This document shows, in pieces, positions 179 through 43,171 of a DNA stretch of 43,171 nucleotides. Below the pieces are notes generated by a model. That model saw nothing but the letters and a program-made list of their open reading frames with translations, did not search any database and had not been told where the DNA came from. Positions within the stretch are counted from its first letter, which is position 1; every line of letters begins with the position of its first letter. Where the stretch lies: UHGV virus genome UHGV-1379488; one strand, given 5' to 3'. This DNA comes from a virus. The translations under genes and the position numbers were made by a program.

Positions 179-1249
179 TCACATGATGAACTTTTCAAAG
201 TGTTTATTGATTTTTTTATTTTGCCGGACAGATTCCAGGTCAATCACATTTCTGTATACAGCTTTCATAATATTGTCACTGGCCCATCCCCCCCGCTGCA
301 ATATATATTGGTCCGGTACACCTATGGCGTGCATAATAGATGCAGCATAATGCCGGAGGTCATGGAAACGGAAATGCGGTACATCAATCTTTTTAAGCAC
401 TCGCCCAAATCTATGTGTGATATAATCCGGGTTCATATCAACCAGCTTTCCTTTTTTGCTAGATATCCGCTCAATTACAAATGCTGGCATTTCTACATCC
501 CGTGTGCTGTCATCCGTCTTTGGCTGCTTAATGTACCATTGATTGTCTGGCCCCTTTACCATATTGTCTCTTACATGGACAATACGACCCTCTACATTTT
601 TGTCAGTAAGGGCGCTTATCTCTCCACGTCTGAGTGGGCCAAATGCAGCCAGTAACACGGCTATCTCTAAATCTGTACCTTTGATAGCGTCTAACAGCTT
701 TTTGATATCATTGTCATTGGGGCAGTATAAATCGGGGCGTTTTTTCTGCGGAAGCTTTACCTTTAAGGTTAAATCCGGCGCAAACATTTCCAAGGATGCG
801 GATAACAGGCCATAGGCATTTCTAACTGTCTTTGGAGACAGTTGTTTCCCTGCCAAATCACTTACCCATATCTGTACAGATGGATTAGATAGTTCTGAGA
901 GCCGTTTACGCCCAAATAAGCCGTCAAAATATTGCTTTTGCATACCAATATACCCTCTAAGCGTAGAAGGGCTTAAAACGCCTTTTTTGACGCTCAAATA
1001 ACGTTCGATAGCTTGGTTTACTGTTATATCTTCGTCCTCATCATCTTCCGATTCATTGTATCGCTCTATGGGCTTGTCTTTCATGTCTAATTTCCATCTG
1101 GTAGCCATTTCTTTTGCTTCCTTGCGTGATGGGGCAACAAAGCTTTTGTAATGCCGCTTACCTTTATCATCTGTATACAGATACACTTGCACTCGGACAT
1201 TTCCAGACGGAAGTACTCCTTTTTTTCTTTTCGGGGCTTTTATAGTCAT
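179..1249 (-). CDS. int: tyrosine-type phage integrase
   Basis: C-terminal HDLRHYAAS...GGWAS...AVYRN recombinase motif region. AAGGAGG RBS 8 nt before the ATG of MTIKAP; the track TTG start at 1267 is probably too long. Adjacent to the left repeat. Confidence 0.85.
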   Translation of the reverse strand: MTIKAPKRKKGVLPSGNVRVQVYLYTDDKGKRHYKSFVAPSRKEAKEMATRWKLDMKDKPIERYNESEDDEDEDITVNQAIERYLSVKKGVLSPSTLRGYIGMQKQYFDGLFGRKRLSELSNPSVQIWVSDLAGKQLSPKTVRNAYGLLSASLEMFAPDLTLKVKLPQKKRPDLYCPNDNDIKKLLDAIKGTDLEIAVLLAAFGPLRRGEISALTDKNVEGRIVHVRDNMVKGPDNQWYIKQPKTDDSTRDVEMPAFVIERISSKKGKLVDMNPDYITHRFGRVLKKIDVPHFRFHDLRHYAASIMHAIGVPDQYILQRGGWASDNIMKAVYRNVIDLESVRQNKKINKHFEKFIM

Positions 1250-1415
1250 TTTTCTTTCCTCCTTCAATTGATTTTCCTAAAAATAGGTATAAAAAATACA
1301 GCTCCACAAAAATATTGCAAAGCCGCCCCGAAGATGGTACAATATAGGTGCGAATTATAGTGCATATCTTCGGGTATGCAATCCGGTTCCTGTTGGCGCA
1401 GGGGCCGGTTTTTTG

Positions 1416-2816: not shown

Positions 2817-3242
2817 CTATCTCCATTCTTTAAAGTCAAAAAGTTTTTCTCTGTATCCTGTTAAACAGGAAAGTTGCTTTTTGTTTAACCCTGGGTTTTC
2901 CAATATAGTAGTGTCAGGTATCAATAACTCCGCAGCAAAAATATTTGCTTCTTGCTCCGGCTTAACCTTACTGAAAAAGGTTCCTCCAAAAAACATACAT
3001 TCAGTACCTTGGTGTAGCACCCCATGACCTACTTCATGGGCTAAGACAATATCACTGTATTTTGTATCGGCAATGCGGGAATTGATGCAGATGCACGGTA
3101 CTCCTTCGTATTCTATGTAGTAACCTGAGTATTTCCCCAGGTCATGCTTTTGTACAATAAAACCTAAATAGTCCGCAAGTTCCATAGGATTTCTGGTTCC
3201 GTATTTTTCAACCAGATTCAAAACAGTATCTTTAATCTCCAA
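2817..3242 (-). CDS. ImmA/IrrE-family metallopeptidase (antirepressor-type protease partner of the repressor)
   Basis: HEVGHGVLH zinc-peptidase motif, about 140 aa, immediately downstream of and co-oriented with the XRE repressor. TTG start with GGAGAG RBS. Confidence 0.75.
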   Translation of the reverse strand: MEIKDTVLNLVEKYGTRNPMELADYLGFIVQKHDLGKYSGYYIEYEGVPCICINSRIADTKYSDIVLAHEVGHGVLHQGTECMFFGGTFFSKVKPEQEANIFAAELLIPDTTILENPGLNKKQLSCLTGYREKLFDFKEWR

Positions 3243-3245
3243 TCG

Positions 3246-3668
3246 CTACTCTCCAAAGCCTTCCTGCTTTTTCTTAATCTTAGCTGCCCTACAAAGTGAT
3301 AACAGTGAGTCTCTTAATAATTTATCTTCATCCTCGTCCCCCGAATAATCCTCGCCGTTAAATCTTAGGACAACTGTTTCATTGTTCCTTATGCGCTTCA
3401 TAATCTCGTCAACATCATTAATTACATTAAGCTCTTCATTTTCAGAAAGAGTGGGCTTCTTTGCTTCTGGGGATTCCTCCTTCCCATTCATCAGGTAGTC
3501 AACAGTTACATTAAAATAATCTGCAAGTTTTTGTAACCGTTCTGATGTAGGAGTACTGTTTTTCCATTTAGAAACAGAACCATTGGAAAAACCTAGCTCC
3601 TTTTCCAACTTTCCTTGTGAAAGCCCACTTGATTTTCTTAAGCTTTCAATTCGTTCGTAGACAGTCAT
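3246..3668 (-). CDS. XRE-family HTH repressor (cI-like)
   Basis: N-terminal HTH_XRE (LRKSSGLSQGKLEKELGFSNGSVSKWKN). AAAGGAG RBS 5 nt before ATG. Divergent from a cro-like gene. Confidence 0.8.
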   Translation of the reverse strand: MTVYERIESLRKSSGLSQGKLEKELGFSNGSVSKWKNSTPTSERLQKLADYFNVTVDYLMNGKEESPEAKKPTLSENEELNVINDVDEIMKRIRNNETVVLRFNGEDYSGDEDEDKLLRDSLLSLCRAAKIKKKQEGFGE

Positions 3669-7910: not shown

Positions 7911-8057
7911 ATGAGAAGTGAACAGGAAGTACAAGAAACTATTATGGATTGGTTTTCTGAGTGTGAAAATGATGAGGAAATCATAGAGATGGAAAGTATG
8001 ATTTCCGATTTGACAGCGCAGGAAAGAGAAAATCGTATATTTGATTTAAGAAATTAA
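7911..8057 (+). CDS. 48-aa acidic hypothetical protein
   Basis: GAGGTG RBS; below the track cutoff. Confidence 0.4.
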   Translation: MRSEQEVQETIMDWFSECENDEEIIEMESMISDLTAQERENRIFDLRN

Positions 8058-8073
8058 AATTTAAGGAGAATAC

Positions 8074-8289
8074 ATGAAAATTACAAAACAGGATGGAACC
8101 GTGGTTAACGGTCATAGTATTGAAATGCAGGGCTGTAGGATATTTTGTACGCCTGATGGAACCCCAATAAAACCGCGAGTGCTGTGCGGTAAGTATTCGG
8201 ATATATTGAGGACTACAGAAGTATTCTCGGAAATGACATACATGGGATGGAACTTTAAGAACCCAGAATACGTTATGCCACAAAACTGA
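8074..8289 (+). CDS. hypothetical protein
   Basis: AAGGAG RBS 7 nt before ATG. Confidence 0.55.
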   Translation: MKITKQDGTVVNGHSIEMQGCRIFCTPDGTPIKPRVLCGKYSDILRTTEVFSEMTYMGWNFKNPEYVMPQN

Positions 8290-8322
8290 CATCTACAGTA
8301 TTAGCATTGTGAGGTGAAAAGG

Positions 8323-8499
8323 ATGGACCACAAAAGTGCGATTAAATCACAAGAAATACAAAATGTAGCAAACTTTTCTACCTGCTATTTTAACGAACTA
8401 TATGTTTTATGCAACAGAGTTTACACAGAAAAGCCAGAAGTAAAAAATTTTAATGAATATGTAAAGAGCCTTATTTTAAAGGACTTGGAACAAAATTAG
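8323..8499 (+). CDS. hypothetical protein
   Basis: ATG 8 nt after GAGGTGA. Confidence 0.45.
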   Translation: MDHKSAIKSQEIQNVANFSTCYFNELYVLCNRVYTEKPEVKNFNEYVKSLILKDLEQN

Positions 8500-8557
8500 A
8501 ATTTTTGGTATCTATTCCCCCTTGTGGGATGATACATACAACGGAAATGAGTACTGG

Positions 8558-8631
8558 TCAGAATGCTGATATGTCATGATATACTTTCTGACCCTGGGCC
8601 GGGACCTATCAAACCTCCTTTACCCGGCCCG
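8558..8631. promoter_or_regulatory. two inverted repeats upstream of the replication module (GGTCAGAA...TTCTGACC; GGGCCGGG...CCCGGCCC)
   Basis: Perfect 8-bp arms at 8558-8565/8588-8595 and 8596-8603/8624-8631. Confidence 0.35.
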
Positions 8632-8645
8632 AAAGGAGGGATTAT

Positions 8646-9020
8646 TTGAAGAATAAGCGAACTGTTAGTGAAGAAGTTCAAGCAAGAGTATATAATGCGC
8701 TCCTTGTAGGGAAAGAGAATGCATTGAACAGAGATGAATTGGTATCCAAGATAGGGGAATCGGATAGAGATATACGAACCGCCATTGAGATATTAAGGCA
8801 CGATAAAGTAATTCTTACATTGCCAACAGGGAAAGGTTACTATATACCCCGTGACGATGCACAGGGACGGCAAGAAACAGAGAAATGGCTTGTCAGCCAG
8901 AATAATAGGACTAAGAGCATAAAGGCAGCAGAACGTGGCGCACAGCTGTTTATAAGCCGGAATAAGAAAAAAGACAAAGGTATTCCTGGTCAGATTAGTA
9001 TGTTTGGAGCCGGATTATGA
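8646..9020 (+). CDS. winged-helix DNA-binding protein (replication or regulatory)
   Basis: TTG start 6 nt after AAAGGAGGG. wHTH-like segment LNRDELVSKIGESDRDIRTAIEILRHDKVILTLPTGKGYYI. Confidence 0.45.
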   Translation: MKNKRTVSEEVQARVYNALLVGKENALNRDELVSKIGESDRDIRTAIEILRHDKVILTLPTGKGYYIPRDDAQGRQETEKWLVSQNNRTKSIKAAERGAQLFISRNKKKDKGIPGQISMFGAGL

Positions 9021-13992: not shown

Positions 13993-14217
13993 ATGATAAG
14001 ACGAGAAATTGAATTTCATCCGATGTCAGAACTGCCTAAAAATTCAGGATATGTATTATTGGCAATTCGACACAATAATCTTAATGATGTGGTTATGGGA
14101 CATTGGAGTGTTTTAAGAGGATTTCAATGTGGGATATATCCCGCATCGGCCAATACGGTATTCTGCTATTGGGCATATCCTCCGAAGCATCCAGACGGAG
14201 AGGAATGGAAAAAGTAA
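13993..14217 (+). CDS. hypothetical protein
   Basis: ORF; weak RBS. Confidence 0.4.
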   Translation: MIRREIEFHPMSELPKNSGYVLLAIRHNNLNDVVMGHWSVLRGFQCGIYPASANTVFCYWAYPPKHPDGEEWKK

Positions 14218-14333
14218 ACTCATTCCGGGAACCAGTTGGGGCTGCGGGCTTCTGTGCAATATGGCAGAGAAATGGAGAGGCTGGTATAAGAAAAAAGCAG
14301 CATAATTGCAAAATGAAATTTGGAGGATAAAAA

Positions 14334-14489
14334 GTGATTAAAGAATATATTACAACTCCCCAGTCATTAGCATTAGCCGCGATGATGTTCACATGGGGAT
14401 TAACTATATCCATCAATAGTAAAACGTTGCTATCTGCAATAAAAGTACTGTGGATTTTTTGCATGGTAGTACTGTGGGCATTAACGTAA
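14334..14489 (+). CDS. 51-aa small membrane protein
   Basis: GTG 7 nt after GGAGG. Two hydrophobic segments. Argues against the overlapping minus ORF 14093-14533. Confidence 0.4.
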   Translation: MIKEYITTPQSLALAAMMFTWGLTISINSKTLLSAIKVLWIFCMVVLWALT

Positions 14490-14507
14490 ATTTCTGGGAG
14501 GATGAGT

Positions 14508-14681
14508 ATGACGGAGGATATTACATACTGCACGAAACAGAATTGTGGTTATCTGCGCTGTGAAAGAAATCAAAAGCATATTAAGCAGCCGATTCCACAC
14601 AGCTATGCGCAGGTGGAGGGAACGAAATTTTGTTATAAAAAGCGTGAAGGTGTTGGAAGAATTGTATATCAACAAGATTAG
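14508..14681 (+). CDS. 57-aa Cys-rich protein (YCTKQNCGYLRCE...FCYKK)
   Basis: GGGAGG RBS 6 nt before ATG. Confidence 0.45.
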   Translation: MTEDITYCTKQNCGYLRCERNQKHIKQPIPHSYAQVEGTKFCYKKREGVGRIVYQQD

Positions 14682-14706
14682 GAAATCTAAGAAAGAAGGT
14701 GTGAAA

Positions 14707-15168
14707 ATGGCATATGCGGAAAAAACTTCTATTTCGGTTGCACGAACCAAGGCAGATATAGAGGAATTAGTACAGAAGTATGGAGCTAGTCAGTTCGTAA
14801 GCGGATACAAGGATAACTTGGCGGTAATAGGCTTTTCAATGTCCGGCCGCCAAATTAAGTTTCTTCTTCCTCTGCCGGACAAATCAGCGCGGGAATACTG
14901 GTACACGCCCGGCCGTGGGCAACGCCGGACAGAGGCGGCGGCGCATACCGCTTGGGAGCAAGCCTGCCGGAGCCGGTGGCGGGCATTGTATCTAATTATC
15001 AAAGCGAAACTGGAGGCAGTGGAAGCTGGAATTAGCACAGTGGAACGAGAATTTTTGTATGACATCGTGCTACCGGATGGCCAGACGGCCGGGGAGTGGA
15101 TGGCACCGCAGATTGCAGAGGCATACCAAACCGGCCAGATGCCGCCTATGCTTCCGTTACTAGATTAG
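14707..15168 (+). CDS. hypothetical protein (153 aa, higher GC)
   Basis: GAAGGTG RBS. The track ORF starts at 14545 in-frame, but the N-extension overlaps the upstream gene. Confidence 0.5.
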   Translation: MAYAEKTSISVARTKADIEELVQKYGASQFVSGYKDNLAVIGFSMSGRQIKFLLPLPDKSAREYWYTPGRGQRRTEAAAHTAWEQACRSRWRALYLIIKAKLEAVEAGISTVEREFLYDIVLPDGQTAGEWMAPQIAEAYQTGQMPPMLPLLD

Positions 15169-15195
15169 AATTTCTGGGATAACCGGAGGAACGTT

Positions 15196-15414
15196 ATGAT
15201 TGATAGGAAACATCCTTTTATTTTTAAAGTAAAATGGAGAGATTTTTATATTTTGTGGGTTTGGAAGTTTGCTTTTATATGGATTACCAAAGCCGAACAT
15301 ACAAATCCAAAGAAATACATAGAAATATGGAATGCAGAATATGGAAAAGCATTGGTATTCGGAAGATATGGAATCGGAATAGGTCATGCATTTAAGTTTA
15401 AGCCACAAAACTGA
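15196..15414 (+). CDS. hypothetical protein
   Basis: CCGGAGGAA RBS (a copy of the shared leader motif). Confidence 0.5.
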   Translation: MIDRKHPFIFKVKWRDFYILWVWKFAFIWITKAEHTNPKKYIEIWNAEYGKALVFGRYGIGIGHAFKFKPQN

Positions 15415-15473
15415 TATTTTCTAAACATAAGAAAAAACAAATTGAGGAAAAATTATATGCACAGAATAAAAAC

Positions 15474-15550
15474 TGAGCGGTGGTCACCCGCCAAGATGAT
15501 TCCACCGCTCCCGTAAATACGTCTGAGTATATTATACCTTACTCAGACGT
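15474..15550. promoter_or_regulatory. two perfect inverted repeats upstream of the internal recombinase gene
   Basis: GAGCGGTGG...CCACCGCTC (15474-15482 / 15501-15509) and CGTCTGAGTA...TACTCAGACG (15521-15530 / 15541-15550). Confidence 0.5.
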
Positions 15551-15581
15551 GAAAATCAATACGAATGAGGAGGATATAATT

Positions 15582-16628
15582 ATGAGTACACAGACAATAA
15601 AAGCTGAAATAATCAACAATGTACTGGTAGCAATGTCCTTATATATCATGGAGCAGCAGACTCTTACCATTCTTCAAAATGTAATGCAGCAGGAATTAGT
15701 AAGGGTGAATATGGAGGAAATAACTACACTTCCAGCAGAAAGAAAGGATGATATAAGCCAGAGTAATCAGTACATAATACAGTTATTCTTGATAAAAAAG
15801 CGTGATTTGGCACGAGGAACCAAAGAAAACTATCTTAATTCCATACGAAGATTGCTGACAGAGATAAGCACAAAATCACTGGACCAGATGGACACCACTG
15901 ATATTGATTGGTATTTATCGCGGTATGAAATCAGAAATGTGTCCAGTGGAGGAAAGAAAAATCAGCCCAGTACCTATAATAACGAGCGCCGTTTTCTGTC
16001 GGCATTCTTTACATGGATGCGCCTTGAAAAGCTTATTGCAGATAATCCGGTAGAGTCTATACCAGCAAAGAAAGTACCAATTAAACCGATTGATTACTAC
16101 AGTCCAGAAGAATCAGCAAGGTTAAGGGATGCGTGCAAAAATATCCGAGAGAGGGCATTGCTGGAGGTGTTGCGCAGTACGGGGGCCAGGATAGGGGAGA
16201 TTGCGGAAATAACTCTGAACCAGATAGACATGGGAACCGGCGATATTTGGATTCAGGGAGAGAAAAGCGGAAGATATCGGACTATCTATCTGGATGATGA
16301 TGCGCGGCATTATTATGGCCTGTATTTGGACAGCAGGAAAGATGATTGCCTATATATGTTCCCGCGCTCCAGAAAACCGTATGGAAAAATGACTACTTGT
16401 GGATTTCGGGCGATATTGAAAACCATAAGGAAAAGAGCCGGCTTAACATGTCGGGTATATCCGCATAAGTCACGAAAGACGCTGGGGATGAATCTAAAAA
16501 ACAGAGGAGTTGATATTGGGACCATACAGGAAATTATGGGACATGCTGACCCAGGAGTTACGGCACGTTATTATGCACAGTCTAACCCGCGTACTCTTCG
16601 TTCAATAAGGGAAAGGGTTAATGTGTAG
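15582..16628 (+). CDS. second tyrosine recombinase (XerC/D- or integrase-family) inside the prophage
   Basis: SAM-like N-domain (TKENYLNSIRRLL). Catalytic region RSTGARIGE...HKSRKT...MGHADPGVTARYYA. GAGGAGG RBS 8 nt before ATG. Confidence 0.8.
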   Translation: MSTQTIKAEIINNVLVAMSLYIMEQQTLTILQNVMQQELVRVNMEEITTLPAERKDDISQSNQYIIQLFLIKKRDLARGTKENYLNSIRRLLTEISTKSLDQMDTTDIDWYLSRYEIRNVSSGGKKNQPSTYNNERRFLSAFFTWMRLEKLIADNPVESIPAKKVPIKPIDYYSPEESARLRDACKNIRERALLEVLRSTGARIGEIAEITLNQIDMGTGDIWIQGEKSGRYRTIYLDDDARHYYGLYLDSRKDDCLYMFPRSRKPYGKMTTCGFRAILKTIRKRAGLTCRVYPHKSRKTLGMNLKNRGVDIGTIQEIMGHADPGVTARYYAQSNPRTLRSIRERVNV

Positions 16629-16639
16629 GAAGGAGGGCT

Positions 16640-16942
16640 ATGAGGACCAGGGACAAGAACTATAGTGATTATGGAATTACGGAGGATGAAGCCAAACGCA
16701 TAAAAGAATACTGCCAGACCGCCAGCGTAGAAGATAAGCTTACATTGTTCCAGTGCGCCATATCATCCGCTCCTGGCCTGGAGGTGGAGATATACGAAAG
16801 CCTTGTTAGTAATATCGGATATGACAAGCTGAGCAAGCGAAAGAATATACCAATTAAGCGGGATGATTTTTACGGATATCAAAGAAAAACGCTGGATGAA
16901 TATAGGCGGTTAATGACATTGTTTGGGAGGTGGAAAGGATGA
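16640..16942 (+). CDS. hypothetical protein (possible late regulator)
   Basis: GGAAGGAGGG RBS. Confidence 0.5.
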   Translation: MRTRDKNYSDYGITEDEAKRIKEYCQTASVEDKLTLFQCAISSAPGLEVEIYESLVSNIGYDKLSKRKNIPIKRDDFYGYQRKTLDEYRRLMTLFGRWKG

Positions 16943-17082
16943 TTAATACTAATAGCACTATACGGGTAACAGAGTTTTTATATGCCTTAAGGTTGGTTAT
17001 AGAAGCCAGTAATAAATTAACCGGTGAAGATATGGTAATGCTTGAAAACATTGCGGAGAAAATGGAGGAAATAAAAAAATGA
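16939..17082 (+). CDS. 47-aa hypothetical protein
   Basis: GGGAGGTGGAAAGG then ATG. ATGA overlap with the upstream gene. Confidence 0.4.
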   Translation: MINTNSTIRVTEFLYALRLVIEASNKLTGEDMVMLENIAEKMEEIKK

Positions 17083-17261
17083 AATGCCCATATCGTAAAG
17101 AAACAAATTTAATCAAAACGGTTGAAACAGAAAAAACCTTTGATACATTTGCTGATTGTTATGAAGATGAATGCAGGCTGTACTGTCACGAAACAAAAAG
17201 TTGTCTTAGGGCAGAAGCGCATAAAGCACAGATATTTGGTACAGTCAAGTATTCACAATAA
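17079..17261 (+). CDS. hypothetical Cys-containing protein
   Basis: GGAGG RBS. Confidence 0.5.
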   Translation: MKCPYRKETNLIKTVETEKTFDTFADCYEDECRLYCHETKSCLRAEAHKAQIFGTVKYSQ

Positions 17262-17306
17262 CGATAAGGCAAAGGGTGGAATTAAGTAGAAACAATGGAT
17301 ACGCTT

Positions 17307-17346
17307 AAATGTGGGGACGGTTTGACCGACCCGAACATGGTAAAAT
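17307..17346 (+). promoter_or_regulatory. candidate late promoter: AAATGTGGGGACG - 21 nt - TAAAAT (copy 1, upstream of terS)
   Basis: The same bipartite arrangement recurs at 27435-27473. Confidence 0.45.
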
Positions 17347-17398
17347 TAGTATAGGACTATTATACCGTGTGAAGCACAAAGAATAAGGGGTGGTGATT

Positions 17399-17800
17399 GT
17401 GGCTTCCAGACTGACGGATAAGCAGAAAAAAGATATTATTGCTGATTATGTAGAGACTGGAAGCTACAATGCTACAGCAAAGAGATTTGGAGTGGCGCTG
17501 AACACAGTCAAAAAAATATGCACACAAAATGCAGATATTGCACAAAAATGCAAACAAAAAAAGGAACAGAACACAGCGGACATGTTAGCTTATATGGATT
17601 CCCGAAAAGAACAGGCGCAGGGAATCATTGATGAATATTTAAAGAAGTTAGCAGACCCAAAGAAATTAGAAAACGCTACTATTTCACAAATTGCAACAGC
17701 TATGGGAATTGTGGTTGATAAGTTTATGGATAACACTAAAAGGGGAGATAACACAGAGGGTATTACTATTTTGAATGATATACCAAAGGAAGAAAGGTAG
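17399..17800 (+). CDS. terS: terminase small subunit
   Basis: N-terminal HTH (LTDKQKKDIIADYVETGSYNATAKRFGV). Immediately upstream of and overlapping terL. GTG after AAGGGGTGGTGA. Confidence 0.7.
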   Translation: MASRLTDKQKKDIIADYVETGSYNATAKRFGVALNTVKKICTQNADIAQKCKQKKEQNTADMLAYMDSRKEQAQGIIDEYLKKLADPKKLENATISQIATAMGIVVDKFMDNTKRGDNTEGITILNDIPKEER

Positions 17801-19052
17801 AACAAAGAGTGTGGGTGAAATTGTTAAACTGACTGACGTAATCGCACCATCCTTCTATGACGTTCACTGGGATATTCTGGACGGTAATCATTCATATTAC
17901 GACCTGTACGGCGGGCGAGGTTCCGCGAAGTCCTCTTTTATATCAGCGGAGATTGTGCTAGGTATGATGGACGACCCAGAGGCCAATGCTGTTATATTCC
18001 GTAAATATGCCGTAACCATTGGAGAATCAGTCTTTGAGCAGATACAGTGGGCCATAGATGCATTGGGTGTAACAGACTTATGGGAATCCCGTACAAGTCC
18101 ATACCGATTTGTTTATAAGCCGACAGGACAAAAAATAATATTCCGTGGACTTGACAAGGCAAAGAAAACAAAATCTATAAAAGCCAGTAAAGGATACTTT
18201 AAATATCTATGGTTCGAGGAACTGGACGAATTTGCAGGACCGGAAGAAATACGAACTGTTGAGCAGTCAGTATTGCGTGGTGGCAGCAAGTTTGTTGTAT
18301 TTAAATCCTTCAACCCGCCTATCAGTCAAAGCAACTGGGCTAATCAGTATGTGAATACTCCAGACGATAGCGCGTATAGGCATAAAAGCGATTACCGTTC
18401 TGTGTCGATTGAATGGCTGGGAGAAATGTTTATTGAGCGTGCTGAACATCTTAAAGCCACCAATGAGCGGGCATATAATCATGAGTATTTAGGTTTGCCG
18501 GTTGGGCTTGGCACAAATATATTTGATATGCTGGAGATTAGAACAATCACGGATGAAGAAATACAGAGCTATCAATCTATATATCAAGGTCAGGATTTTG
18601 GGTGGTGGCCTGACCCTAAAGCATTTATTCGGGCAGCCTATGTAGCAAATAAAGAAAAAATTGTGTTATTAGATGAATTAGGCGGGTGCAAGATTAGAAA
18701 CTCTGATATGGCTCGCATGATACAGGAAAAAGGATACGATGATTATACTCTTATGTGTGGAGTGGACGAGAAGGAAAGTATTGTTGACCTTCGTGACGCT
18801 GGTATTCCAGCCCGTAGTGCTATTGTAACGCCTGGGAGTAGGAAATATACGTATGAATGGCTACAGTGTCGTACAATCGTCATAGACCCAGCCAGAACGC
18901 CAAGGGCATACAAAGAGATTATAGAGTATGAGCATGAGATTGATAGCAACGGAGAAGTGATTGCAGATTATCCAGACGGAAATGACCACTGGATAGATGC
19001 CTTACGGTATAGCATTTCTCCTATGGCTATGAGAAGGGGACACAGTGCGTAG
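17775..19052 (+). CDS. terL: terminase large subunit (PBSX/Terminase_3-like)
   Basis: Walker A-like DLYGGRGSAKSSF, nuclease-domain acidic residues, 425 aa. Start uncertain; GTG at 17808 is also possible. Confidence 0.85.
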   Translation: MIYQRKKGRTKSVGEIVKLTDVIAPSFYDVHWDILDGNHSYYDLYGGRGSAKSSFISAEIVLGMMDDPEANAVIFRKYAVTIGESVFEQIQWAIDALGVTDLWESRTSPYRFVYKPTGQKIIFRGLDKAKKTKSIKASKGYFKYLWFEELDEFAGPEEIRTVEQSVLRGGSKFVVFKSFNPPISQSNWANQYVNTPDDSAYRHKSDYRSVSIEWLGEMFIERAEHLKATNERAYNHEYLGLPVGLGTNIFDMLEIRTITDEEIQSYQSIYQGQDFGWWPDPKAFIRAAYVANKEKIVLLDELGGCKIRNSDMARMIQEKGYDDYTLMCGVDEKESIVDLRDAGIPARSAIVTPGSRKYTYEWLQCRTIVIDPARTPRAYKEIIEYEHEIDSNGEVIADYPDGNDHWIDALRYSISPMAMRRGHSA

Positions 19053-19506
19053 TGGGGCAAAGAAAAATTATCCAAGGATATATAAAATATGGCAGGGTAT
19101 CCGTCAGAGATGCAATAACCCGAATGACAAGGATTATGATAATTATGGTGGTAGAGGAATAAAGGTCTGTGAGGGATGGAATAACAACTCAATGGAATTT
19201 ATTCAATGGGCCTTGCAAAATGGATATACTGATAATTTGAGCATTGACAGAAAAGATACAAACGGAGATTATTGCCCTGAAAACTGTCATTGGGCTACGG
19301 AAACAGAACAGGCCAGAAACAAGCGAAAACAGAGGACGAATAGAACCGGGTATAATGGCGTACATTATGAGGCAGATAGGGGAAAATATCGAGCTTTGAT
19401 ATACGTTAATAGCAGACGTATGGATTTGGGGAGATATGATACAGCAGAAGAAGCTGCCGAGGCACGAAGAAAGGGAGAAGTGAAATACTGGGGTGCTATG
19501 CCATAA
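19045..19506 (+). CDS. HNH endonuclease with AP2 domain
   Basis: HNH_3-like SIDRKDTNGDYCPENCHWATETEQ. AP2-like YNGVHYEADRGKYRALIYVNSRRMDLGRYDTAEEAAEARRK. Confidence 0.75.
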   Translation: MRSGAKKNYPRIYKIWQGIRQRCNNPNDKDYDNYGGRGIKVCEGWNNNSMEFIQWALQNGYTDNLSIDRKDTNGDYCPENCHWATETEQARNKRKQRTNRTGYNGVHYEADRGKYRALIYVNSRRMDLGRYDTAEEAAEARRKGEVKYWGAMP

Positions 19507-25708: not shown

Positions 25709-26248
25709 ATGAGCTATAAGATGATGCAGAATATCCATGAAGAACTGGATAAGATTGCGGAAAAGGGCCTGAACACTAGCAACCTTGAAACCGCATACAA
25801 ACTGATAGACATGTGGAAAGACATGGAGAATGTGGAGTACTGGAAGTGCAAAAAAGAGTACTACAATCAGGTAATGGACGAAATGGATGGCGGAGAATAC
25901 AGCGAAGCGCGCCGCAAACGCGACAGCATGGGACGTTATAGCCGTGCTGATGGAATGTCACAGGACTATGATAATGACAGTTCTTATCGCGGCACACGTG
26001 GAAAGCATTACGTCAGAGGTCATTACAGTCGCGCCACTGGACCGGCCTATGACGACTACATGAATCAGAAGCAGAGCTACAGAAGCGGCGGGAAAGATGA
26101 AGATTGCAAGCGGCGTATGCTTGCAGCCCTGGAAGAGCATATGGACGAACTGACAGAAGAATTAGGCGAAATGTCAAAAGATGCTGATTGCCGCGAGGAA
26201 CGGGAAACCATGAAAAGATATATCGAAAAGTTGCGTAATATGATGTAA
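25709..26248 (+). CDS. highly charged Tyr/Arg/Asp/Met-rich hypothetical protein
   Basis: GGGGGTAAGG RBS. Confidence 0.5.
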   Translation: MSYKMMQNIHEELDKIAEKGLNTSNLETAYKLIDMWKDMENVEYWKCKKEYYNQVMDEMDGGEYSEARRKRDSMGRYSRADGMSQDYDNDSSYRGTRGKHYVRGHYSRATGPAYDDYMNQKQSYRSGGKDEDCKRRMLAALEEHMDELTEELGEMSKDADCREERETMKRYIEKLRNMM

Positions 26249-26253
26249 CAAAA

Positions 26254-26287
26254 AGCGGTGGGAATAATCTCACCGCTTTTTGAAAAT
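26254..26287. terminator. bidirectional rho-independent terminator (AAAAAGCGGTGGG-loop-TCACCGCTTTTTG)
   Basis: Perfect GC-rich stem flanked by an A-run and a T-run between convergent genes. Confidence 0.75.
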
Positions 26288-26317
26288 GTATTACCAAAAA
26301 AATTTGTTTTCTCTCCT

Positions 26318-26608
26318 TTAAATATGATTCCAATCTAACATAATATGGATTTCTTTTTCTTCATTATTGATTGCACATAGACAGGGTGATTCTTTCCCTT
26401 GAATCAGCTCGTTTGGTGTATAAGTCCAACCCCACGGAGCCGTCAACACAATGCCGGCCTCTGTCTCGTCACATCCCCATCCTTCTGGCACTGTGTATTC
26501 TATTGGTTCGCTTTCTACTGCTGTTGGATGAGGATTGCCCTCAGTAAATACCGGATGTTTCTCAGCAGCCAAACATCCATAATTTATGTATCCTTTAAAT
26601 GTTTTCAT
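26318..26608 (-). CDS. hypothetical protein
   Basis: AAGGAGGAG RBS 6 nt before ATG. Confidence 0.55.
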   Translation of the reverse strand: MKTFKGYINYGCLAAEKHPVFTEGNPHPTAVESEPIEYTVPEGWGCDETEAGIVLTAPWGWTYTPNELIQGKESPCLCAINNEEKEIHIMLDWNHI

Positions 26609-43092: not shown

Positions 43093-43171
43093 AAATAAAG
43101 TACCATCTTCGGAAATATGCAACACGAAATGCAACACGGAGCCTACAAACCGCATAAAACCGTTGTATTTT

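Follow-up and report, generated by a model that had tools for sequence, protein, structure and literature searches.

The window analysed here is the whole 43,171-nucleotide (nt) stretch of the virus genome UHGV-1379488, and the subject of the analysis is a tyrosine recombinase gene in the middle of it, together with the non-coding region directly upstream (Table 1). The window is filled by a complete prophage of ~43 kb. The attachment (att) core ATATGCAACACGA..TGCAACACG occurs twice, at ~138-165 and ~43110-43136, and the start of the window looks like the 3' end of a transfer RNA gene. The recombinase gene is located 15 kb from the att-side integrase and attL, 26 kb from attR and 0.8 kb upstream of terS/terL. 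After the early genes, the gene order is the recombinase, three small open reading frames (ORFs), a terS-like helix-turn-helix (HTH) gene, TerL, an HNH/AP2 endonuclease and the portal. A preliminary description of this DNA had reported a full-length Xer-like recombinase of 348 amino acids (aa) with an intact catalytic set, distinct from the att-adjacent integrase and situated between the early genes and the packaging module. All three points were borne out: the ORF, the Pfam match and the catalytic hexad agreed at 15582-16628, the other integrase is encoded 15 kb away on the minus strand, and the gene is preceded by exonuclease, DnaD and DnaC genes and followed by the terS-like gene and TerL.

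Table 1. Position of the recombinase gene, its upstream elements and other prophage features in the window
Feature	Position	Strand	Remarks
Tyrosine recombinase gene, 348 aa	15582-16628	+	ATG 15582; stop 16626-16628
Shine-Dalgarno (SD) sequence GAGGAGG	15567-15573	+	8 nt before the recombinase ATG; kept in relatives
Hairpin H1	15475-15510		Arms GAGCGGTGG (15475-15483) and CCACCGCTC (15502-15510); 9-bp stem; 18-nt conserved loop TCACCCGCCAAGATGATT
Hairpin H2	15519-15550	+	Perfect 11-nt arms ACGTCTGAGTA / TACTCAGACGT; 10-nt loop; brackets the antisense -10 box
-35 box TTGATT of predicted antisense promoter	15554-15559	-	10/12 matches together with the -10 box
-10 box TATAAT of predicted antisense promoter	15531-15536	-	In the H2 loop; 17-bp spacer to the -35 box
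Predicted countertranscript, ~57 nt	15465-15524	-	Start inferred at ~15524, end at ~15466; complementary to the recombinase leader
Candidate 19-codon leader ORF MHRIKTERWSPAKMIPPLP	15457-15516	+	Weak candidate; SD GAGGAA at 15444-15449; reads through H1
100-aa orphan gene	16640-16942	+	Right part of the mosaic block; co-inherited with the recombinase
Mosaic block (upstream non-coding region, recombinase, 100-aa gene)	15406-16942	+	86-100% DNA identity
Att-side tyrosine integrase	179-1267	-	Adjoins attL
cI-like repressor	2817-3668	-	Left end, with an ImmA-like protease gene
Exonuclease gene	6564		Rightward early gene
DnaD-like gene	9017		Rightward early gene
DnaC-like gene	9633		Rightward early gene
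terS-like HTH gene	17390-17800		3' of the recombinase
TerL gene	17775-19052		3' of the recombinase

From the N-terminus, the recombinase comprises an extra pair of helices, the SAM-like core-binding domain and the catalytic domain. Residues 176-334 matched Pfam PF00589 (7.3e-30; 104.4 bits against a cut-off of 27.1) and the core-binding domain matched PF13495 (1.8e-8); the above-threshold match to PF00589 and the full catalytic set place the protein in the tyrosine recombinase superfamily. PHROG 1, labelled 'integrase', was matched at 1e-48. The longest mechanical ORF starts at GTG 15480 (382 aa), and the recombinase is called in this way in some databases (P0001, P0002), but this start is improbable because it lies inside a conserved hairpin. 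The catalytic hexad (R203, K228, H295-x-x-R298, H321 and Y331) was unchanged in 21 sequences of 55-100% identity and was also retained in homologues of 24-38% identity. Mutation of these residues in relatives, which the preliminary description had named as the mark of a pseudogene, was thus not seen down to 24% identity. The ratio of non-synonymous to synonymous substitution rates (dN/dS) was ~0.08 against relatives 90-91% identical, which indicates an intact gene under strong purifying selection and does not agree with the suggestion of a remnant of modular exchange.

A profile search recovered 752 cluster representatives at E<=1e-30, mostly of 330-345 aa with the N-terminal extension included, and by these comparisons the protein represents a large and new subfamily of simple tyrosine recombinases, marked by the additional N-terminal helix pair. 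The AlphaFold model was moderate (predicted local distance difference test score 70.6). The nearest solved relatives by sequence were XerA (1.8e-29) and XerD (8e-22), in the same order in Foldseek, followed by lower-ranked sequence or fold matches to IntI4, Tn1549 Int, lambda Int, XerH and Cre, with phi3T SroF among the fold matches. PADLOC gave no defence match for the recombinase or its five neighbours, and the family, structure and PADLOC searches returned no known phage resolvase family, a match that the preliminary description had named as grounds against its reading. With the Xer proteins (archaeal XerA, PDB 4A8E and 5HXY; bacterial XerD, XerS and XerH) the recombinase shares the two-domain organisation of a simple recombinase, SAM-like plus catalytic, and the set R-K-H-R-H-Y. 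It differs from them in being phage-borne rather than a housekeeping chromosomal protein and in its extra conserved N-terminal helix pair, and it fell below the NCBIfam equivalog cut-offs for XerA (138.7 vs 220), XerD (96.4 vs 329.6), XerC (92.1 vs 335) and XerS (41.5 vs 267). No dif-like site (28-31 bp, with 11-bp arms and a 6-8 bp spacer) adjoins the gene, where the palindromes are spaced 10-19 and 16-22 nt.

The non-coding region upstream of the gene (15415-15581, 167 nt) holds the hairpins H1 and H2, with loops of 16-22 nt and 10-19 nt, respectively, in relatives. The same architecture was present upstream of the recombinase in ~90 of 96 distinct relatives, and was found also before recombinases only 24-38% identical. 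A covariance model located its sole copy in the window at 15468-15552 (36 bits, E 4e-7), and one copy per related locus (96 in 100 sources). Compensatory changes were observed at every one of the 18 base pairs (9/9 in H1 and 9/9 in H2), and 92.8% of cells were paired; shuffling gave 69%, and sliding the partner column 34-49%. No match was obtained in Rfam 15 at E<=1 for 14000-18000 on both strands. A fixed 20 nt separated the conserved loop motif A(T/G)T(A/G)TA from an invariant CAA, despite the variable H2 loop. On the plus strand H1 contains C.A mismatches, which become G.U pairs on the minus strand, and in each of 64 distinct sequences the H1 hairpin was stabler when read on the minus strand (-17.9 vs -13.0 kcal/mol). 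For H2, G.U outnumbered A.C on the plus strand (23 vs 7), so this hairpin most likely folds in the sense leader.

Two other readings of the conserved bases were tried and rejected. The loop motif fitted poorly as a plus-strand promoter or TATA-like element, whereas the minus-strand reading fits every invariant base. H1 is not a conserved peptide, as the frame of the small ORF is lost across clades and is shifted by a 1-nt indel in the loop. Of 83 relatives, 46 had a same-frame ATG ORF of 16-19 aa corresponding to the candidate leader ORF; the Lacrimispora clade lacked it. As the ORF is missing in one large clade, any leader-peptide role is optional.

The minus-strand site TTGATT-17-TATAAT was the best promoter-like site in 14400-17900 (10/12 matches). 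Among 75 distinct relatives, the -35 box was TTGnnn and the -10 box TAnnnT in all 75, and the spacer was 17 bp in 74; the -10 variants were TATAAT (54), TATACT (14) and TACAAT (7), and the invariant alignment columns were T-12, A-11 and T-7 of the -10 box. About 45 nt downstream on the minus strand, H1 appears as a GC-rich hairpin followed by the U-tract AGUUUUUAUU, which together form a predicted intrinsic terminator. An opposite-strand promoter and terminator of this kind would give a short RNA, of 49-67 nt in relatives (median 56), and the A-rich plus-strand flank that encodes the U-tract was found in nearly all of them. The predicted countertranscript begins with a short 5' tail, continues in a long interrupted hairpin whose apical loop is UUGG/UGGC, and ends in the U-tract. 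Its minimum free energy was -25 kcal/mol (z -4.2), and what appears as the 'loop' closes into an inner stem with a conserved apical UGGC/UUGGNC of YUNR type.

From the promoter signature and the terminator, 15465-15559 was read as a countertranscript gene facing the recombinase leader, and it is probably a small antisense RNA gene controlling the recombinase. A minus strand carrying a promoter and an RNA hairpin would explain the fixed TATA-N20-CAA spacing and the C.A mismatches of H1, two features that suit neither a plain sense-strand RNA motif nor a recombination site. H2 lies outside the countertranscript because only about six nt of its 5' arm would be transcribed. When the antisense target was masked in silico, the H2 3' arm (UCUCCUU) sequestered the SD in 25 of 82 leaders, chiefly those of the long-loop Lacrimispora type, and the predicted SD accessibility in these 25 dropped from 0.5-0.9 to ~0. 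In existing annotation the predicted RNA element is covered by 'hypothetical protein' ORFs or by a 34-codon N-terminal extension of the recombinase.

The arrangement recalls CopA/CopT of R1, RNAIII of pIP501, paQ/OOP of lambda and sar of P22. The likeness lies in a constitutive-looking promoter that would transcribe a short RNA opposite to a leader, in the hairpin and U-tract at its end, in the YUNR-type loop and in the exactly complementary target hairpin. The possible leader peptide resembles R1 tap. In contrast to the known countertranscripts, the putative target here is a recombinase encoded between the early and late genes of a Gram-positive phage, and the RNA is a prediction. Conservation also runs in reverse of that in plasmid incompatibility determinants, as here the loop is conserved across phages and the stems vary.

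Variants of the hairpins were seen in several other genomes. In L033 (9895-9981) the H1 loop is the exact reverse complement of the loop type of L038 (AACTCGCCAAAGTT), with the stem arms intact, and is a small DNA inversion of the loop; this would be tolerable to an antisense RNA because the sense and antisense loops stay complementary. Hairpins with the same 14-nt loop CACCCGCCAAGATG on unrelated stems, and without H2, were found in L152 (~13108, oriented copy), L168, L188, L193 and L228; the L152 copy stands directly upstream of a classical 371-aa integrase, and such hairpins were more frequent in other viral contigs than expected among chance 14-mer matches. Left of H1, many relatives (L078:1070-1130, L003:3387-3450, L058:9300-9360 and others) carry two further conserved elements that are absent from the window. 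One is a GC hairpin (AAGCCGGGGG..CCCCGGC) with AAATAAAAA behind it; the other, AGAACATATGTGCGAA or AAGAACATACATTCGAA, is at most one mismatch from the Gram-positive LexA (Cheo) box GAAC-N4-GTTC. In L034 and L045 both of these elements lie directly before the recombinase SD, without H1/H2 there, and in L045 the H1/H2 element is located 3.5 kb upstream, ahead of about ten small genes.

The preliminary description had considered the recombinase not to be a typical core gene at this position; on the contrary, it belongs to a module conserved in exactly this slot in this phage lineage. In >100 phage loci of Lachnospiraceae (carriers of the family include Enterocloster, Lacrimispora, Hungatella and Clostridium scindens) the gene kept this slot at the early/late boundary, and in the contexts L003-L009 it stood between the last early genes and the terminase irrespective of terminase type. 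Of 106 loci that extended far enough, 72 had a TerL, belonging to one of three types, at a median of 1.5 kb downstream of the recombinase. The module recurred in phages whose replication and terminase genes otherwise differ. Two integrases are also present in phiCs5676-1, a cultured phage of C. scindens: one is encoded beside the repressor, and the other, the homologue, occupies this slot, near the right end of the genome. The block 15406-16942 was common to 25 close relatives whose flanks both vary, and in L058 and L075 its left boundary is 15476, the start of H1. Inheritance of the block as a unit and its fixed slot argue that the recombinase is a conserved component of a lytic module and not an oddity or a leftover. 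Two hybrid phages were also recognised: L092 is of the window type up to the H2 loop and of a 70%-type beyond it, and L089 changes type inside H1; in both, the conserved loops serve as mosaic joints.

The gene that follows the recombinase differs between lineages. In L172 and L006 it is a DUF1492 or phrog_36/248 'transcriptional activator' gene, and sigma-r4-like genes directly follow the recombinase in several other lineages. Late activators of the LtrB family, to which DUF1492 corresponds, are usually encoded right behind the replication module (PMC3753634). The Ltr families as a whole (RinA, ArpU, LtrA, LtrB/DUF1492 and LtrC; PMC3753634) share the slot at the end of the early operon just upstream of terS, but neither the recombinase nor the 100-aa gene of the window is homologous to them. 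The 100-aa gene has 23 homologues, none of them named, and no Pfam match; it was rejected as a late activator, as no BLASTP or profile-profile likeness to the sigma-r4/DUF1492 genes following the recombinase elsewhere was detected. In L129 (2381-3283), L131, L036, L026 and L027 the recombinase is followed by no activator and by a protein of 260-300 aa with an HUH-like motif (..AEHIHMVQ..), which resembles a rolling-circle Rep. In the Terrisporobacter phage TPELB_ph1 (L002), a 29%-identical homologue (7938-8933) lies between the tail-fibre genes and the holin; this phage also has a larger annotated integrase (527 aa) for integration, and the location of the homologue suggests a different role, possibly tail-fibre switching.

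Taken together, these data favour, with a probability of roughly 0.5, an active simple recombinase (Xer/Cre type, without an arm-binding domain) that would serve the lytic programme and not integration, as part of a self-contained module with a cis-encoded countertranscript. The best-supported statement, as far as such predictions go, is that the recombinase would be catalytically active, expressed in the lytic cycle and gated by antisense RNA. In this scheme the minus-strand promoter, close to the sigma-A consensus, would make the ~57-nt antisense RNA, the conserved UUGG loop of which would kiss the complementary H1 in the sense leader. Through H2 of the sense strand, the kissing interaction would set the amount of recombinase and of co-transcribed downstream gene products made by read-through from the early operon. 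The likely effect would be a module that is silent in the lysogen and timed during induction.

What the enzyme would act on can be proposed more tentatively. By analogy, it may act site-specifically on replicated phage DNA before packaging, resolving or interconverting multimers, and the position beside packaging and late-activator genes also points to a reaction at this stage. Xer-like recombinases of the plasmid prophages c-st, phiCD38-2 and vB_BtS_B83 are believed to cyclise the phage DNA or resolve its multimers (PMC8026635). These enzymes and Cre/loxP of P1 resemble the present one as phage-encoded simple recombinases apart from integration; the difference is that the present phage integrates by means of its own att-side integrase and has no par genes. 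More speculatively, the module might constitute a developmental checkpoint, in which a constitutive countertranscript restrains the operon of the active recombinase (and, in many relatives, of a late activator) and strand exchange itself, on phage or host DNA, is a required lytic step. Conservation of the antisense loop among otherwise different phages might also allow a resident prophage to damp this step in related phages that enter the cell. If true, this would be a form of cross-immunity that needs no repressor, and the checkpoint would be of a kind without a described counterpart in Gram-positive phages.

Taken singly, Xer-like recombinases of phages and cis-antisense RNAs belong to known kinds. 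No description of a module combining the two was found in the searchable literature, and the new elements are the conserved pairing of the recombinase with a predicted antisense RNA, the fixed early/late slot in >100 Lachnospiraceae phage loci, and an RNA element absent from Rfam. Temperate phages infecting Lachnospiraceae abound in the human gut, and their genetics is almost unstudied. The strict conservation of an intact recombinase between early and late genes suggests that a site-specific DNA reaction takes place during the lytic cycle, a step that current models of Firmicutes phages do not include, and the antisense RNA gene would be a small regulatory element that lends itself to testing. 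Simple recombinases whose cognate site lies nearby are useful in genome engineering, and identification of this family's target would extend the range available.

Several observations weigh against the proposal of an antisense-gated lytic recombinase. The antisense RNA gene is a prediction from the DNA sequence. In the window-type leader, the SD and AUG were predicted to pair with the H2 5' arm and loop whether the target was masked or not. With both helices taken together, G.U and A.C were balanced on the plus strand (45 vs 41, in counts from related, non-independent sequences), and this count did not by itself decide between RNA and DNA. No recombination site for the recombinase was identified in the prophage, the palindromes adjoining the gene are spaced 10-19 and 16-22 nt, unlike a 6-8 bp crossover region, and no second H1/H2 copy was found anywhere in the prophage with the covariance model. 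There is also no need for plasmid-dimer resolution while the prophage is integrated: no partition (par) genes were found in the gene survey of the window, and in the integrated state without them such resolution would be unnecessary in the lysogen. No TerL of the tested types was found within 7 kb in 34 of the 106 loci. Finally, the recombinase was lost by illegitimate deletion in the natural variants L235 and L174 and split in L187. These losses may mean that the recombinase is dispensable under some conditions, or that these prophages are decaying. The L235 deletion has only 2 bp of microhomology at its joint, which marks it as illegitimate and rules out site-specific excision.

The main rival, which is unlikely on present evidence but is compatible with the RNA reading, is that H1/H2 is the recombinase's own DNA substrate, either a lox/dif-like core or a folded single-strand site as in integron attC, acting between sister genomes in cyclisation or dimer resolution. 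The sites of Cre (loxP), XerS (difSL) and XerH (difH) adjoin their genes, H2 of the window is a perfect 11-10-11 palindrome, and the arms are semi-conserved (GCYTRAGGA) and always inverted. The joints of the hybrids L092 and L089 inside H2 and H1, the DNA inversion of the L033 loop, and the presence of IntI4 among the top structural matches point the same way. Against this, the arm spacing (10-19 nt for H2 and 16-22 nt for H1) is variable where a recombination site has a fixed overlap of 6-8 bp. The same holds in comparison with Cre/loxP, which has 13-bp inverted arms around a fixed asymmetric 8-bp spacer; no lox-like site of fixed spacing was found here, and the likeness of the protein to Cre is weak (Foldseek E ~1e-5). 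The invariant bases are exactly the TTG of the -35 box and the T, A and T of the -10 box at 17 bp, which a recombination site does not predict. Moreover, the element is more conserved than the protein, with the same loop and near-identical arms beside recombinases of 24-38% identity, and its folding is asymmetric between the strands. A dual role, in which the recombinase binds H2 and shuts off the antisense promoter, could combine the two readings.

The search for a second site gave only unsuitable candidates. Apart from H1/H2, the covariance model made one weak hit, at 26247-26323, and this proved to be an ordinary terminator; the surrounding sequence AAAAAGCGGTGGGAATATCTCACCGCTTTTT (26229-26323) is a bidirectional intrinsic terminator inside the structural region. 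Searches with 9-mers and with the arms returned chance matches alone (e.g. 626-636 and 17343-17366). No recombination product was seen in ~125 related loci.

Less probable still is a DNA invertase that flips a switch elsewhere (host invertible promoters, hsdS shufflons or another phage locus) and so reprograms host or phage at induction. Lachnospiraceae are rich in invertons, and tight antisense control would suit an enzyme that is harmful if leaky. The likeness to tyrosine-type DNA invertases in NCBIfam was weak, however, at 35.6 bits against a cut-off of 221. Nor was there an inverted-repeat pair flanking a segment in 14500-17900 besides the two hairpins, as expected for an enzyme of the FimB/E, Rci or RecV type, and the surroundings of the gene were in the same orientation in all of ~100 loci; for targets in trans, the window was searched and gave no candidate site. 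The invertible switch proposed near 15474-15550 in the preliminary description was likewise not supported, as this interval contains two short hairpins, in one copy per phage and of constant orientation.

A second integrase or excision partner, using an alternative attachment site or helping the att-side integrase, is quite improbable. The 'integrase' label is attached to this family in phiCs5676-1 and PHROG 1, and several IMG/VR prophage predictions end just upstream of the gene, which probably reflects boundary-calling on integrase genes. Set against these labels are the distances from attL and attR given above, the N-terminus, which consists of two helices and gave no match to the arm-binding domain of lambda-type integrases, the phage genes on both sides in every context examined, and the co-occurrence of a separate tyrosine integrase or, for the homologue in TPELB_ph1, of the larger annotated integrase. 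Least probable of all is a non-catalytic DNA-binding regulator that switches late genes. In its favour, the gene occupies the usual place of a late regulator, domain and profile searches of the window revealed no recognisable Ltr-type activator, and the SPbeta-family repressors (YopR/MrpR and phi3T SroF, a fold match) likewise use the recombinase fold outside integration. Those repressors have lost catalysis, whereas here the six catalytic residues are invariant over 24-100% identity, which is unexpected for a pure DNA binder, and a separate sigma-r4/DUF1492 activator follows the gene in many relatives.

Three further features of the window were recorded. An HNH/AP2-domain endonuclease gene on the plus strand (19045-19506; phrog_374, 1.4e-52) overlaps TerL at its end and is followed by the portal gene; it looks like a homing-type insertion or a cos-packaging HNH. 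At the very start of the terS-like gene there is a 17-nt inverted repeat (17396-17412 and 17454-17470; 88% complementary, with 41 nt between the arms), a possible pac site or target of an activator. Between the att-side integrase and the ImmA/cI pair, a minus-strand gene (1416-2120) encodes a protein with a C-terminal domain like beta-lactamase-inhibitor protein (BLIP; phrog_6148, 2.7e-14), and is a possible moron.

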